Positions 12,123 through 16,946 of a stretch of DNA of 16,946 nt are shown one piece after another (the stretch's first letter is position 1; the number at the start of each line of letters is the position of its first letter). This DNA comes from Candidatus Heimdallarchaeota archaeon (GTDB taxonomy: Archaea > Asgardarchaeota > Heimdallarchaeia > Heimdallarchaeales > Heimdallarchaeaceae). The notes below the pieces were generated by a model that saw only the letters and a program-made list of their open reading frames with translations, was not told the origin of the DNA and did no database searches. The position numbers and the translations under genes are program-made. The stretch covers positions 1 through 16,946 of the forward strand of contig JAHLWR010000037.1 of assembly GCA_019057815.1 (NCBI GenBank), in the 5' to 3' direction.

Positions 12123-12180
12123 AGGCAATCACAGTAGAATGTTAACTTAATCGTAGTAGTAAGCTATCATCAAGCTTGTG

Positions 12181-12195
12181 TTTTTAATACTTTTC
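12181..12195 (-). promoter_or_regulatory. Putative internal BRE-TATA promoter for eL32-uL15
   Basis: Minus strand GAAAAG-TATTAAAAA about 60 nt upstream of the eL32 start, downstream of a T-run (12271-12266) that follows uL6. Confidence 0.55.
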
Positions 12196-12310
12196 ATGTT
12201 TAACAAATAATTTCGTAGAAACTTAAATTAATAGAAGATAAAAGAGAGTATTGCAAAAGGATGTAAAAAAAGAACAAGGAACAATTAAGGAAGTGTAATG
12301 AGATAAGGGC

Positions 12311-12865
12311 TTATTCTTTCTTTTGCCACACCCAAATTCCATCCATAAAAGTCTCTGGATCTTTCTTTCTTTTACCTCTTAACCTGCATTTTTCCTGCAT
12401 ATTCGCAGCTGTTTGACCTACAGCTTGTTTATCTATACCTTCTATGATTACGTCGTCTTTATCTAAGCTTACTTTTGTATTATTCCCCACAATTGGTACT
12501 ATCAGTATTTTTCTTCCACCATACAGGTTTTTAATTAGTATTTGTCGTTGTTTGTCCTTAATTTCAACAGTTATAGGAAAGTGGCTAAACACTATTTTTG
12601 ATTTATAGACATAACCTTTAGTTACTCCATGGATCATGTTTTGGATTCTTCCTACCACAGCAAGTGTTTTAGCTTTCTTTTTCTTATTAAGGAAAAAACC
12701 TGTAACAATCAAGGCATTTTCTCTTTTTTCTAAATCTACATCATAATTAGTATAATCAGAGGTCAGTACACCCTTTTGTCCTTTAACCGATACTTTTTTG
12801 TTTTCGATTGTTATATCTACTTCTTCAGGTATTTCGATTTTTTTTGTTAAATATACTAATTTCAT
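12311..12865 (-). CDS. rpl6: 50S ribosomal protein uL6
   Basis: IEIPEEV, VKGQKG, NMIHGVTKG, SHFPITV, IEGIDKQAVGQTAAN, KDPETFMDGI. Confidence 0.97.
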   Translation of the reverse strand: MKLVYLTKKIEIPEEVDITIENKKVSVKGQKGVLTSDYTNYDVDLEKRENALIVTGFFLNKKKKAKTLAVVGRIQNMIHGVTKGYVYKSKIVFSHFPITVEIKDKQRQILIKNLYGGRKILIVPIVGNNTKVSLDKDDVIIEGIDKQAVGQTAANMQEKCRLRGKRKKDPETFMDGIWVWQKKE

Positions 12866-12877
12866 AGTACCATCACC

Positions 12878-13270
12878 TCAATACATATAGGCCAACAACC
12901 GGCCACCAACACCTTTCTCTTTTGCATCTTCGTGACTCAGTACACCTTCAGGAGTTGTTAATACAAGTATACCAAATCCTCTAGCGGGGAGAAATTGCCG
13001 TTCCCAAGATTCAAAGTCATCTTTCTTAACAGGGAAACGTGGCTTAATAACACCACATTTGTTTATTCTTCCCATAAGTTGGATCTCAAATATTCCTCCA
13101 CGGTGATCTTCAATATATTCTAATTCTCCTAAATAACCGGATCTTTGTGCAGTTCTTAAGACATTTGCGATAATCTTGCTTGCGGGTTTAACTTCAACTG
13201 ACTTCTTTCCTGTTTTTTCAGCGTTCAGTATAGTGATTAGAGCATCACTTAATGGGTCCATTTTCACCAT
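12878..13270 (-). CDS. rps8: 30S ribosomal protein uS8
   Basis: [59 protein letters not shown]. Start ATG 13270 with GGAGGT SD. The track's 13327 start lies inside rps14. Confidence 0.98.
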
Positions 13271-13283
13271 TTTCTTTACCTCC

Positions 13284-13451
13284 TTATCCTCCTCGACTTC
13301 CTGTTTTTTTGAAACCGATTTTGCCATAGATTTCTCTTATACATCTTCTACAAACGTTCAAGCCACCTCTTCGTATAAGTCCTTTATGGCTTCCACATCT
13401 TCGACATTGGCGAGATCCTTTTCCGTATTTTATTTCTCTTCTTTCTTGCAT
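13284..13451 (-). CDS. rps14: 30S ribosomal protein uS14 (zinc-binding C+ type), 55 aa, absent from ORF track
   Basis: Hand translation [55 protein letters not shown]. Two CxxC motifs, GGTGA SD, between uL5 and uS8. Confidence 0.97.
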
Positions 13452-13461
13452 TTCGATCACC

Positions 13462-14028
13462 TTAAACTATTTGAACATTGAATTCCTTTTGAACATATTC
13501 TAATGCCTCTTCTTTTGTTAGCACATGATTCTTAGAGATTCTCTGTCGCTTTCGTTGTCTATACTTTAGCCTATAACCAGGTCGTTCAAGTTTCACGATG
13601 ACATTAAAACCTATTGTCCCGAGCAGTGGATCGAAAGGAGCTTTTTCTATGTCGACGTGTTCAGTTATACCAAAGCTAAAATTACCTTGTTTATCGAAAG
13701 AAGATTCTTTTATCATGAAATCTTTTGCATAAAGAAACCGTTTCAATAACTGGTGTGCTTCTTCGCCTCTTAAAGTTATAACTACCGCTATTGCTTCATC
13801 TTTTCGGATATTAAAACCTCTAACAGTTTCTTTGGCACACCTTTCCACAGGTTCCCTATCAGTAATCTGACGCAAAATCTCTTTTGCTCTTTCAAAACTA
13901 GGTCCGGATTCACCCACACAAGAGTTGATTATTACACTAGCCAACTTTGGTTTTCTCATGGGGTGTTTCTTCCATTCTTCTTCAAATTGAGAAGGAATTA
14001 ATTTGGTTTCAGCAACTTCATCACTCAT
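13462..14028 (-). CDS. rpl5: 50S ribosomal protein uL5
   Basis: [50 protein letters not shown]. Confidence 0.98.
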
Positions 14029-14783
14029 TTCCCGTCACCTACATTTTCAAACATAGATATTGATGGGTCTTTATTACCTACAACAAAGATGTATCTGAAC
14101 AGCGTTACAATTAAGTCACCAGAAGACGATTTAATTGTGACAGTTCTTACATTCTTAGTTTGATGAGTACTTATGTCTTCAATTATTCCATGTTGTCCCA
14201 TCCATCTTCCACTTGTAACTATACCGTAATTACCTAATTTCAATTCAAAGTTTTCAAGGATTTTCTGGTTTGGTAATGTTATTTTTATTGTATCATAAGT
14301 AGAATAGTTTCTTGTTTCTTGCTCTTCAGGAGTTAAAATAATATTTCTTCCATCGTGTAGATTAAGCTGCGTTAAACCACCTTTGATTGTACTTTTGTTT
14401 TTTATCTGACATAGTTTAACTTTGGCTTCATCGTCAGTTATTGTAATTGTCCTTAACCCTTTCCCTGGGAGATATACCAGTCTATAATGCTCATTAATTT
14501 TTGGGAATGAGATAACATCCATAAAACCTACAGGATATTTTCTGTTACGACGAACTCTTCCGTCAACAACAGTATTTCTTTCGTTAATAATTCTCTTAAC
14601 TTCACTCATATTTCGAGCATATCCAAACATATCTCGCAATATAATAGCTAGTGGGATACATTCAGATGCAGCATGAGGACCGGGAGAGGGTCTTACTGTA
14701 TATTTAAATGCTTTCTTAAGGACTGGAATGTGTTTTGAAATTGCCAATCTTTTTAGATGGTGTCCGCCACCTGAACGTGTCAT
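14025..14783 (-). CDS. rps4e: 30S ribosomal protein eS4
   Basis: HLKRLA, RPSPGPH, PLAIILRD, VDGRVR..KYPVGFMDVI, KLCQI, QLNLHDGRN, YIFVVG. Confidence 0.98.
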   Translation of the reverse strand: MTRSGGGHHLKRLAISKHIPVLKKAFKYTVRPSPGPHAASECIPLAIILRDMFGYARNMSEVKRIINERNTVVDGRVRRNRKYPVGFMDVISFPKINEHYRLVYLPGKGLRTITITDDEAKVKLCQIKNKSTIKGGLTQLNLHDGRNIILTPEEQETRNYSTYDTIKITLPNQKILENFELKLGNYGIVTSGRWMGQHGIIEDISTHQTKNVRTVTIKSSSGDLIVTLFRYIFVVGNKDPSISMFENVGDGK

Positions 14784-15310
14784 GATGATGCCTCCTCTTC
14801 TAATTCATCTACTTCTAAATCTTCAAACTCTTCTTCAAAAGTTTCATCTTCAGTAATATCATGATCTTCACTTAATTCGTCCCTCGACTCCTCTTCATCA
14901 AAGACACTTTCTTCAAATTCCTCTTCAGATAACTCTTTCTCAGAACGACGTCGAATGATTTCTCTACGTTTTTTGTCTTTGAGATTTAATGCTGTTATCA
15001 CTACATTACTTGGACGCATTGGAAAGCTGACTATGGTTCCATCAGCTTTTTCTTTCGAGTATCCTTCAACATGAATAGAATATTTTTGTGGAAGGGTCCT
15101 GATCACCTTACCTTTAATCTCTTGGTCTTCTGATTTAGCTCTGAAAACAGTAACTTTATCTCCTTTATGAACAGGTAAACGCTTAATACCATACTTTTCT
15201 CTCAATGATTTTGATAGTGGAGCAGTCATTCTTTTGTTTCTGAGATGAAGTGAGGCTTGATAGCGTCTTTTTCTTTGCTTTTTTGGTTGTTTTGTTTTTG
15301 GTAAAGTCAT
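14780..15310 (-). CDS. rpl24: 50S ribosomal protein uL24 with acidic C-terminal tail
   Basis: QPKKQRK, APLSKSLREKYG, LPVHKGDKV (KOW), KADGT, PSNVVIT, then a 54-aa acidic tail. Start ATG 15310 with GGAGG SD. Confidence 0.96.
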   Translation of the reverse strand: MTLPKTKQPKKQRKRRYQASLHLRNKRMTAPLSKSLREKYGIKRLPVHKGDKVTVFRAKSEDQEIKGKVIRTLPQKYSIHVEGYSKEKADGTIVSFPMRPSNVVITALNLKDKKRREIIRRRSEKELSEEEFEESVFDEEESRDELSEDHDITEDETFEEEFEDLEVDELEEEASS

Positions 15311-15321
15311 ATTTTCTCCTC

Positions 15322-15738
15322 CTAAACAATTATTGAAGCTTGGTGTGCAATCCTTGGCCATTTCTCTGCTGCTTCACGAGAAATAGGTCCTCTTATTTCG
15401 GAACCAAGTGGATCTGCAACTTCATTTGTTAGAACGCAAGCATTTTCTTCGAATTGTATCCATTCACCAGAAGGTCTTCTATAAGGAGATTTTTGACGAA
15501 CTACAATAGCCGGATGAATGGTTTTTCTTCTTTGAGGAGTGCCTTGTTTAACTGAAATAATGACCATATCTCCAACTGCTGCGCGAGGAACTCTATTTAA
15601 TCTACCTCTATAACCTTTCACAGCTATTATCTGAACAATTCTTGCACCTGAATTATCAGCAACTTTCATTCTTGAACCTACCATCAATCCAAAAGTTCTA
15701 TGGTTTAATGGACGTCCTACAGTTTTTCGCTTTGCCAT
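15322..15738 (-). CDS. rpl14: 50S ribosomal protein uL14
   Basis: VADNSGAR, GRLNRVPRAAVGDM, AIVVRQK.PYRRP.G, FEENACV, GSEIRGPISREAAEKWPRIA. ATG 15738 with GGTG SD. Confidence 0.98.
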   Translation of the reverse strand: MAKRKTVGRPLNHRTFGLMVGSRMKVADNSGARIVQIIAVKGYRGRLNRVPRAAVGDMVIISVKQGTPQRRKTIHPAIVVRQKSPYRRPSGEWIQFEENACVLTNEVADPLGSEIRGPISREAAEKWPRIAHQASIIV

Positions 15739-15748
15739 AATCAACACC

Positions 15749-16081
15749 TTAAGACATCTTTTGTATTACAACAAAGCTCACAGTCTTTGACAGTGGGCGA
15801 CATTCGCTTGCAAGTACGATATCTCCTTCTTTTACATTTAAACAAGGAGGGTTATGGGCAGATATTTTGCCGTGTTGTCGTTCATATCGTTTGTATTTCT
15901 TTACATATCGAAGAAAATCCCGTCTCATAACAACTGTCCCTCTCATTTTATCAGAGATAACTTTTCCAGAAAACAGTCTCCCTCTTACACTTAGTTTTCC
16001 ATGGAAGGGACAATTCAAATCCTCACACTCTGTTGGTGGAGGCATTACATTTTGTATACCTATATTTCTAACTTTTGCCAT
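15749..16081 (-). CDS. rps17: 30S ribosomal protein uS17
   Basis: [46 protein letters not shown]. Start ATG 16081 with GGAGTGA SD (16093-16087). Confidence 0.98.
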
Positions 16082-16086
16082 TTGTA

Positions 16087-16197
16087 TCACTCCGGTAAAG
16101 CGTCTTCCACCCATAATCACTCATATTTGGCTAAACACATGAGTGTCAATTTTGGACCCTATTTTAGGGTTAAGACGTCAGATACCTGTTTTACCAG
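16087..16197 (-). ncRNA. Candidate structured cis-regulatory RNA in the rpp29-rps17 intercistronic region
   Basis: Four nested or adjacent stems by inspection. The G-U pairs form only on the mRNA strand (see findings). Confidence 0.5.
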
Positions 16198-16490
16198 TTT
16201 TTTGTTTTTCTTTTTAATCTTTTCTCTGGAGTACCTTCTAAGATTTTACCATCTATTCTGGTTTTTGTTCCATCTTCGAACTCAATTCTGAATATTTGGC
16301 CTTTCTTTTGTACCCAGATTTTCTTATTACCTATATTCAACTTCAACATTTTTGCAGTTTCATCTTCAATTTTACCTTTGACATTTTGAAATTCTGGCAA
16401 CTTACTCTTTATTATTTCGACATTACATCCGCACAATGATGTAATCACTTGTCGCCAAACCTTTTTGTTTTTTTCCTTATATTTGATCAT
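16191..16490 (-). CDS. rnp1: Ribonuclease P protein subunit Rpp29 (POP4)
   Basis: L.G..VEII.S.......KGKIEDETAKML, V.KKG..F, IDGKILEGTPEKRLK. Canonical position between uL29 and uS17. Confidence 0.9.
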   Translation of the reverse strand: MIKYKEKNKKVWRQVITSLCGCNVEIIKSKLPEFQNVKGKIEDETAKMLKLNIGNKKIWVQKKGQIFRIEFEDGTKTRIDGKILEGTPEKRLKRKTKNW

Positions 16491-16704: not shown

Positions 16705-16946
16705 TTATTTTTCAGTGTCTTTCTTATCAGCGTCTTTCTTTTTAGAAACCTTCTTAGGCTTATCCTCTTTTACTTCAGTGTCCTTCTTATCAGCGTCTTT
16801 CTTTTTAGAAACCTTCTTAGGTTTATCCTCTTTTACTTCAGCGTCTTTCTTATCGGCGTCTTTCTTTTTAGAAACCTTCTTAGGCTTGTCTTCTTTTACT
16901 TCAGCGTCTTTCTTATCGGCGTCTTTCTTTTTAGAAACCTTCTTAG
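16705..16946 (-). CDS. rps3: 3' end of the gene upstream of uL29, almost certainly the repetitive C-terminal tail of uS3
   Basis: 79 open codons (KKVSKKKDADKKDAEVKEDKP...DTEK*) ending at TAA 16707-16705, abutting uL29. Identity rests only on conserved S3-L29 synteny because the uS3 core lies outside the window. Confidence 0.75.
   Translation of the reverse strand, partial: KKVSKKKDADKKDAEVKEDKPKKVSKKKDADKKDAEVKEDKPKKVSKKKDADKKDTEVKEDKPKKVSKKKDADKKDTEK
16711..16946 (-). repeat. 63-bp coding tandem repeat (PKKVSKKKDADKKD[A/T]EVKEDK), at least 3.8 copies
   Basis: Units start at CCT codons at 16947 (off edge), 16884, 16821 and 16758. Differences are mostly synonymous, plus GCT/ACT. Confidence 0.97.

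Follow-up and report, generated by a model that had tools for sequence, protein, structure and literature searches.

The DNA directly upstream of rps17 in this heimdallarchaeotal genome encodes a conserved RNA, whose three-way junction fold is supported by covariation and which lies on the mRNA strand at positions 16187-16086 of the window (the whole stretch of 16,946 nt that was analysed). Because rpp29 is often missing upstream, and because the element follows a conserved BRE/TATA box in relatives, we take it as the 5′ leader of an eight-gene ribosomal protein (r-protein) operon, uS17-uL14-uL24-eS4-uL5-uS14-uS8-uL6, of which the transcription start and the limits are predicted. We propose, with a probability of about 0.6, that this leader mediates feedback repression by one of the eight encoded r-proteins.

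Architecture of the element in the window

The window belongs to a 3.7-Mb archaeal genome of 33% G+C, and a search of this genome with covariance model R1, built from 23 sequences of the Heimdallarchaeaceae (family f1), returned a single match at 16187-16086. The features of the locus are as follows.

16705-16487, minus strand: uL29 (Pfam L29)
16191-16490, minus strand: rpp29, RNase P protein subunit (Pfam RNase_P-MRP_p29), outside the element
16210-16224, minus strand: BRE/TATA-like box GAAAAG-ATTAAAAAG in the 3′ end of rpp29, matching the box of relatives, GAAAAGTATTAAAAAG
16086-16187, minus strand: leader RNA element, three-way junction, full covariance-model match (model R1, 82.6 bits, E 1.3e-20)
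16183-16186, minus strand: P1′ 5′ strand GGUA, partner UACC 16094-16097; conserved closing helix (95.8% of cells paired)
16172-16179, minus strand: P2 5′ strand with G16179, bulged A16178 and CGUCUU 16177-16172, partner AAGACGC 16100-16106; invariant in 36 of 36 sequences
16156-16170, minus strand: P3 hairpin ACCCUA-AAA-UAGGGU; 6 of 6 pairs with compensatory changes, 97.7% of cells paired
16111-16155, minus strand: P4 arm, with base CCA 16155-16153 paired to UGG 16113-16111, a 4-nt bulge AAAU 16152-16149 and a variable hairpin (12 of 13 hairpin pairs with compensatory changes)
16145-16137/16126-16118, minus strand: P4 hairpin helix
16107-16110, minus strand: junction strand J4/2, GUGG in the window and GUAU in most relatives
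16087-16093, minus strand: Shine-Dalgarno sequence GGAGUGA, immediately 3′ of P1′, complementary to the 16S 3′ end GGAUCACCUCCU
15749-16081, minus strand: rps17 (uS17), first gene of the predicted operon (Pfam Ribosomal_S17, E 7e-26)
12311-15738, minus strand: rest of the predicted operon, uL14, uL24, eS4, uL5, uS14, uS8 and uL6 (Pfam)

The gap from the rpp29 stop codon (UAA 16193-16191) to the uS17 AUG (16081-16079) measures 109 nt on the minus strand, and the gene following uS17 on that strand is uL14 (Pfam L14). An earlier note, made from the letters of the window, had given this gap length and the identities of the two flanking genes; the coordinates agree and Pfam confirms the genes. Further upstream, the gene preceding uL29 (window 16705-16944, minus strand), which probably encodes uS3, carries a C-terminus with at least four tandem Lys/Asp-rich 21-residue repeats.

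The minimum free energy (MFE) structure computed by RNAfold for 16205-16075 (minus strand), at −35.3 kcal/mol, reproduces the three-way junction that the earlier note had drawn, and all of its helices, namely P1 (16197-16190 with 16099-16092), the alternative closing helix GGUA/UACC, P2, P3 and P4 with the CCA/UGG extension, were located at the positions assigned to them. Dinucleotide shuffles of the same segment, the check suggested in that note, averaged −24.7 kcal/mol (sd 3.5), so that the native fold stands at z = −3.05 and is equalled in stability by 1 of 200 shuffles. The opposite (plus) strand folds more weakly, at −28.8 kcal/mol (z = −2.24). The first two bases of J4/2 form the end of an AUGGGU block that is invariant among 36 distinct sequences, and the 3′ edge of the fold lies 1 nt from the rps17 Shine-Dalgarno sequence in every genome, this sequence reading GAGGUGA in most relatives.

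Conservation, covariation and rejected identities

For the comparative analysis, uS17 was located in 40 related genomes and the DNA upstream was then read. Among the first-fetched loci of the Heimdallarchaeaceae the element lies directly before the rps17 Shine-Dalgarno sequence in 23 of 23, from five genera, and it is still present in the 11 of these 23 loci that lack both rpp29 and L29 upstream of rps17. Model R1 detects it once per genome in 28 of 30 Heimdallarchaeaceae genomes, the other two having no S17 match either. Outside the family the model gave no match, whether in 17 further genomes of the order or in 53 belonging to other families of the class. In a retrieval independent of the RNA, 80 metagenomic uS17 loci were fetched by protein alone; the element occurs in all 10 close relatives having upstream DNA and in 0 of 69 distant uS17 loci. 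An exact-pattern scan of public genomes with the conserved blocks of the element returned 26 contigs, nearly all filed as Candidatus Heimdallarchaeota, among them two closed genomes, Ca. Heimdallarchaeum endolithica PR6 and Ca. H. aukensis PM71, as well as AB_125. A leader scoring 96.6 bits was also observed at locus L063 on a 7.6-kb contig filed under a Candidatus Atribacteria MAG (JAIVYW010000060.1), probably a mis-binned archaeal contig.

The family consensus reads AGGUA-nn-U-G-A-CGUCUU-A-[P3 hairpin]-CC-R-ARAU-UG-[P4 hairpin]-CA-UGG-GUAU-AAGACG-C-nn-UACC-GAGGUGA, and the same architecture is obtained when each of the 23 sequences is folded individually. The element ranges from 81 to 108 nt in length in steps that are not multiples of three, and the region is thus non-coding. 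Covariation was assessed on 36 distinct sequences, some of them retrieved by protein only, in a model-based alignment which, being fitted to the covariance model, leans towards that model: standard pairs occupy 93.4% of cells, compared with 79.8% in column shuffles, and sliding the 3′ partner by 1-3 columns drops the paired cells to 39-47%. Changes on both sides occur in 21 of 32 pairs, and the covariation score of 0.412, compared with 0.167 in the shuffles, was reached by 0 of 500 shuffles. A plain MAFFT alignment gave a similar result (89.3% paired vs 39-47%). The element is a real conserved RNA, and the comparison of gaps and covariation among relatives that the earlier note had advised thus comes out in favour of its candidate archaeal r-protein leader, a conserved and covarying structure directly before the rps17 Shine-Dalgarno sequence.

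The variation is unevenly distributed over the structure. The P2 helix, comprising a G-C pair, the bulged A and CGUCUU/AAGACG, shows no variation in the 36 sequences from five genera, and the junction bases A, CC, AUU and AUGGGU are likewise invariant. P1′ covaries, becoming AAUAA/UUAUU in genus g4 (Ca. Heimdallarchaeum) and being extended as GGUGAU/AUUACC in part of genus g3. The pairs at the base of P4 vary on one side only, G-U with A-U and C-G with U-G. Because G-U alternates with A-U or G-C in relatives, the RNA is assigned to the mRNA strand, as the earlier note had argued from the G-U pairs of the window. As a separate feature, most of the relatives in genus g3 (L003-L019) carry an extra small hairpin within the 20-45 nt before the element, between the predicted transcription start and the element (for example AUAACUG-UGAAU-CAGUUAU or AAAUCC...GGGAUUU), which the genus of the window lacks.

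Several known identities were considered for the element. With Rfam 15, only a tRNA-Ser at 1498-1576 reaches the gathering score in the window, and the best values at the element (E 1.3-6.3) are noise, which bears out the earlier statement that it is not a described family. ARAGORN reports no tRNA at the element, no C/D or H/ACA boxes were found in it, and a scan for bacterial-type promoters and terminators, a type of scan not applicable to archaea, gave nothing relevant. A coding role, either as a small ORF or as an extension of the uS17 N-terminus (from GTG 16120), was rejected, as the length differences are non-triplet and the variation follows pairing rather than codons. The kink-turn of the L7Ae/eL30 type consists of a 3-nt bulge followed by tandem sheared G-A/A-G pairs, whereas in P4 the bulge ARAU is followed by U-A and G-C pairs and the consensus has no GA opposite GA. 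The core of the uS8 site is an irregular helix with a base triple, in which AAG faces a strand with bulged UA (A642/U641); a uS8 operator mimicking 16S h21 was rejected, as AAGACG-CGUCUU of P2 pairs continuously and the only bulged base of the helix, an A, is found at its opposite end.

Imitation of the rRNA site of the bound protein is common among r-protein leaders, though not obligatory, and no convincing rRNA mimic was found in the element. With filters off, model R1 scores at most 7.9 bits on the 16S and 23S rRNAs of the genome itself and on the 5S candidate of a related genome. Short motif resemblances near chance level exist with 23S H39-H41 and H27-H31, 16S h11 and h21, and 5S loop C, and no match to the element was found in 16S h11, the uS17 site, or h21, the uS8 site. 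23S H39-H40-H41 (GCCGAAA-hairpin-CGAUGGGUUAAGG) resembles the flanks of P4, with the rRNA bases pairing with other partners; CCRAAA followed by AUGGGU within 45 nt occurs 40 times in the genome, with about 0.03 expected in rRNA, and a second resemblance of this kind at 23S positions 784-840 indicates that such matches arise easily. The region of 5S loop C has only CCA(G/A)AA and UAAG in common with the element. A divergent 5S rRNA was also rejected as the identity of the element, since the 5S model gives no match on it and sub-threshold full-length 5S candidates lie elsewhere.

Two side observations concern the rRNAs of this family. The Rfam 5S model has no match in the genome of the window at E <= 0.001, and its hits in the closed Ca. 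Heimdallarchaeum genomes, although full-length, all stay below threshold (31 bits vs a cut-off of 38); one such candidate, G004:C1:2590506-2590630 (L089 1501-1625), when used in blastn, points to likely copies at G000 C39:47761-47866 and C43:238930-239034. The 5S rRNA of the family is divergent and standard annotation would miss it. In addition, the 16S 3′ end at G000:C23 ~18380-18430 (minus strand) has about 32 nt, AAAUACAUGAGUAGAAACUUAUGUAUCGCAAG (a hairpin), between CUGCGG and the anti-Shine-Dalgarno tail UGGAUCACCUCCU, where roughly a single base is present in other archaea; this insertion adjoining the anti-Shine-Dalgarno sequence is unusual.

Transcription unit and proposed feedback control

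In relatives, a strongly conserved box, CTTAACAATrAAAAGTATTAAAAAGAT, is found some 65-70 nt ahead of the element, and in the window the corresponding box GAAAAG-ATTAAAAAG precedes the element by about 22 nt. The gap itself holds no TATA-like sequence, and in this respect the earlier reading of 'no obvious TATA' was right, but the box at 16224-16210 lies in the last codons of rpp29. From the usual archaeal distance between TATA and start, transcription is predicted to begin at about A16187, the first base of the element, which is preceded by a C. The earlier note had allowed that a start inside the gap might reduce the gap to a promoter spacer; a start there is indeed probable, but the fold lies downstream of the predicted start, so that the gap is not only a spacer. 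In several genomes of genus g3, rps17 is preceded by divergently oriented uL22-uS3 or by unrelated genes, and therefore rps17 must have its own promoter. At L009, L012, L015 and L018 of this genus, uL22 and uS3 were observed in the 1.5 kb before the leader, encoded on the other strand and adjoining the rps17 promoter, and in these species the r-protein supercluster is inverted or broken exactly at the promoter of the leader.

At the other end of the predicted operon, the 182-nt gap between uL6 and eL32 (window 12129-12310, minus strand) contains a T7 run at 12271-12265 and then, before eL32, a box AACATGAAAAGTATTAAAAAC (12200-12180) that is a near-perfect copy of the BRE/TATA box of the family. 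It probably holds both an internal terminator and a promoter, which would divide the long r-protein cluster into a uS17..uL6 and an eL32..uL15 unit. A further box GAAAAGTATTAAAAAG at G000:C21 ~27566 (minus strand) stands about 28 nt before an apparent tRNA gene (GCCCCGAUGGUGUAGUUCGGCC...), and since copies precede both eL32 and a tRNA gene, the box is a general strong BRE/TATA element. In the window its bases also encode the conserved basic (Lys/Arg) tail of Rpp29, and no T-run lies between rpp29 and the element; for these two reasons, the leader may also, or only, be intercistronic in the genus of the window.

In models of 23 leaders, each running from the start of the element to codon 11, the Shine-Dalgarno sequence has a mean pairing probability of 0.29, and no conserved anti-Shine-Dalgarno segment was found. 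By itself, then, the RNA does not close off the ribosome-binding site and, as P2 and the junction are invariant and the Shine-Dalgarno sequence is mostly unpaired, a trans-acting binder is indicated, which is most likely an encoded r-protein. The closing stack, P1′ together with the invariant P2 and its bulged A, carries P3 and P4, in which the sequence is free as long as the pairing is kept. In the mechanism that we consider most likely, an r-protein of the operon in excess over free rRNA would bind the invariant core of P2 and the junction and, by its bulk or by locking P1′, keep the 30S subunit off the adjacent Shine-Dalgarno sequence, so that the mode of repression would be steric exclusion or entrapment of the 30S subunit. 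Translational coupling between the closely spaced genes would then spread the repression from uS17 to the rest of the operon.

uS17, uS8 and uL24 are primary rRNA binders, and uS8 regulates the bacterial counterpart of the uS17..uL6 operon. Among the primary 16S-binding proteins of E. coli, uS17 alone has no known autoregulatory site; for this reason, and because it heads the operon, uS17 is an obvious candidate ligand. A bolder version of the proposal, possible yet tentative and clearly less probable than feedback as such, is that the leader would be the first Asgard r-protein operator, that its ligand, with uS17 and uL24 as the obvious candidates, would be a protein without a known mRNA operator in any domain, recognising an invariant bulged-A helix beside a three-way junction, and that a sister family would solve the same task with an unrelated pseudoknotted leader.

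The same fold could instead serve the stability or processing of the mRNA, protecting it from 5′-to-3′ exonucleases or offering an endonuclease site that separates read-through transcripts, with no r-protein feedback. The Shine-Dalgarno sequence is left free, the predicted start coincides with the first base of the fold in the window, and read-through transcripts in the genus of the window must carry the element, as no T-run separates it from rpp29. However, a stable fold would suffice for protection, which does not explain why the sequence of P2, the bulged A and the junction stays absolutely constant over five genera in which the other helices change; most relatives, moreover, have about 45 nt and another hairpin before the element, which hence is not at the 5′ end. 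We consider this explanation unlikely.

A riboswitch combines an aptamer with an expression platform of mutually exclusive pairing and usually serves several genes of a pathway. Invariant junction nucleotides amid covarying helices are an aptamer-like pattern and the element matches no known family, so that the junction might bind a small molecule, an ion or a regulatory protein reporting the growth state; indeed, a non-ribosomal factor might just as well recognise the invariant helix. However, a single copy per genome, always before rps17, makes no regulon, no conserved alternative pairing that might act as an expression platform was found, with the Shine-Dalgarno sequence mostly open, and complete invariance of a 7-bp helix is more usual where a protein is the binder. 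A site for such a ligand or factor is thus somewhat less probable still than a stability element.

The earlier note had offered, as an alternative to the r-protein leader, a coupling switch, in which translation of uS17 would depend on ribosomes terminating at rpp29, through pairing of the rpp29 stop codon with the G bases of the Shine-Dalgarno sequence. This helix, CUGGUAAA/UUUACCGG, of 8 bp, is indeed part of the MFE structure of the window and of its sister genome, and read-through transcripts probably exist in this genus. However, it is confined to the genus of the window; in other genera either there is no rpp29 upstream or its stop codon is 184-308 nt away, and the junction is closed by GGUA/UACC. 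Its 5′ strand, UGGUAA, is merely the conserved Trp-stop end of rpp29, and a start near 16187 would leave this strand out of the RNA. Since the stop-codon helix is unconserved, the coupling switch fails for the family, and we regard it as highly improbable. That the element acts in trans, as a small RNA gene of its own or as a stable sRNA derived from the leader, to which the upstream promoter box and the compact fold might point, is just as improbable, as no T-run terminator separates the element from rps17, the fold ends one base before the Shine-Dalgarno sequence in every genome, and neither C/D or H/ACA boxes nor a tRNA-like call or an Rfam match is present. Feedback repression by an encoded r-protein is the reading that we prefer, and it is the one considered below.

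Comparison with known ribosomal protein leaders

The element is a new candidate family of a known kind, the r-protein leader. In the E. coli spc operon, an mRNA structure near a ribosome-binding site is bound by uS8 and the control is spread by translational coupling, and the near-identical gene string L14-L24-L5-S14-S8-L6 is under feedback control. However, the uS8 operator lies inside the operon at the start of L5 and copies 16S h21, whereas the present element lies at the 5′ end before uS17; as compared with the genome's own h21, the AAG/bulged UA core is absent and P2 is regular apart from one bulged A at a different place. The leader of the E. coli S10 operon (L4) similarly occupies the 5′ end of a long r-protein operon, which in bacteria includes rpsQ (S17), but L4 is not encoded in the uS17..uL6 operon and the two structures are unrelated. 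The S10 leader also works at the level of transcription, but the present element is not followed by a terminator-like T-run.

Few cis-regulatory RNAs are known in archaea, and Asgard archaea are the closest prokaryotic relatives of eukaryotes. This well-supported small leader, with clear invariant bases and only eight candidate binders, offers a direct route to the balance of r-protein and rRNA synthesis in these organisms, and may reveal a new RNA-protein recognition pair. A search of the full-text literature found no description of the element, nor of any cis-regulatory RNA in Asgard archaea, and promoters and intergenic RNA are not discussed in a paper on Asgard r-protein clusters (PMC10833476). 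A survey of bacterial and archaeal r-leaders (Eckert and Weinberg, 2020; PMC7247131) gives four archaeal motifs, of which two belong to S15, from Halobacteria and Methanomicrobia, and one each to eL15 and L4. Like the present element, these candidates are covariation-supported 5′ UTR RNAs of r-protein operons, proposed to bind the encoded protein, and the S15 motifs are multistem junctions as well; however, that work includes no S17, L14, Asgard or Heimdall motif, and its Rfam models match nothing here.

A further comparison is offered by sister family f3 (L028-L030, L095-L101), in which a multistem leader also lies between rpp29 and rps17, downstream of a TATA box; the gap measures 211-304 nt and the leader occupies the 130-170 nt before the rps17 ATG. 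This leader was described by eye, its MAFFT alignment being too poor for a covariance model. It has a covarying hairpin (GGAA/UUCC, GAGA/UCUC, CAGAU/AUCUG), a second hairpin with a CCCUC loop complementary to the Shine-Dalgarno sequence of f3, GAGGG, and a three-way junction closed by AGCCU/AGGUU. It differs from the present element in its consensus, in which CCUGA is complementary to the UCAGG loop of the covarying hairpin, a pairing that likely forms a pseudoknot, and model R1 is blind to it. In families f2 and f4 the gap between rpp29 and rps17 shrinks to 1-2 nt and there is no leader. Therefore, with unrelated leaders at the same operon boundary in two sister families and none in two others, these archaea present a compact case of regulatory RNA turnover.
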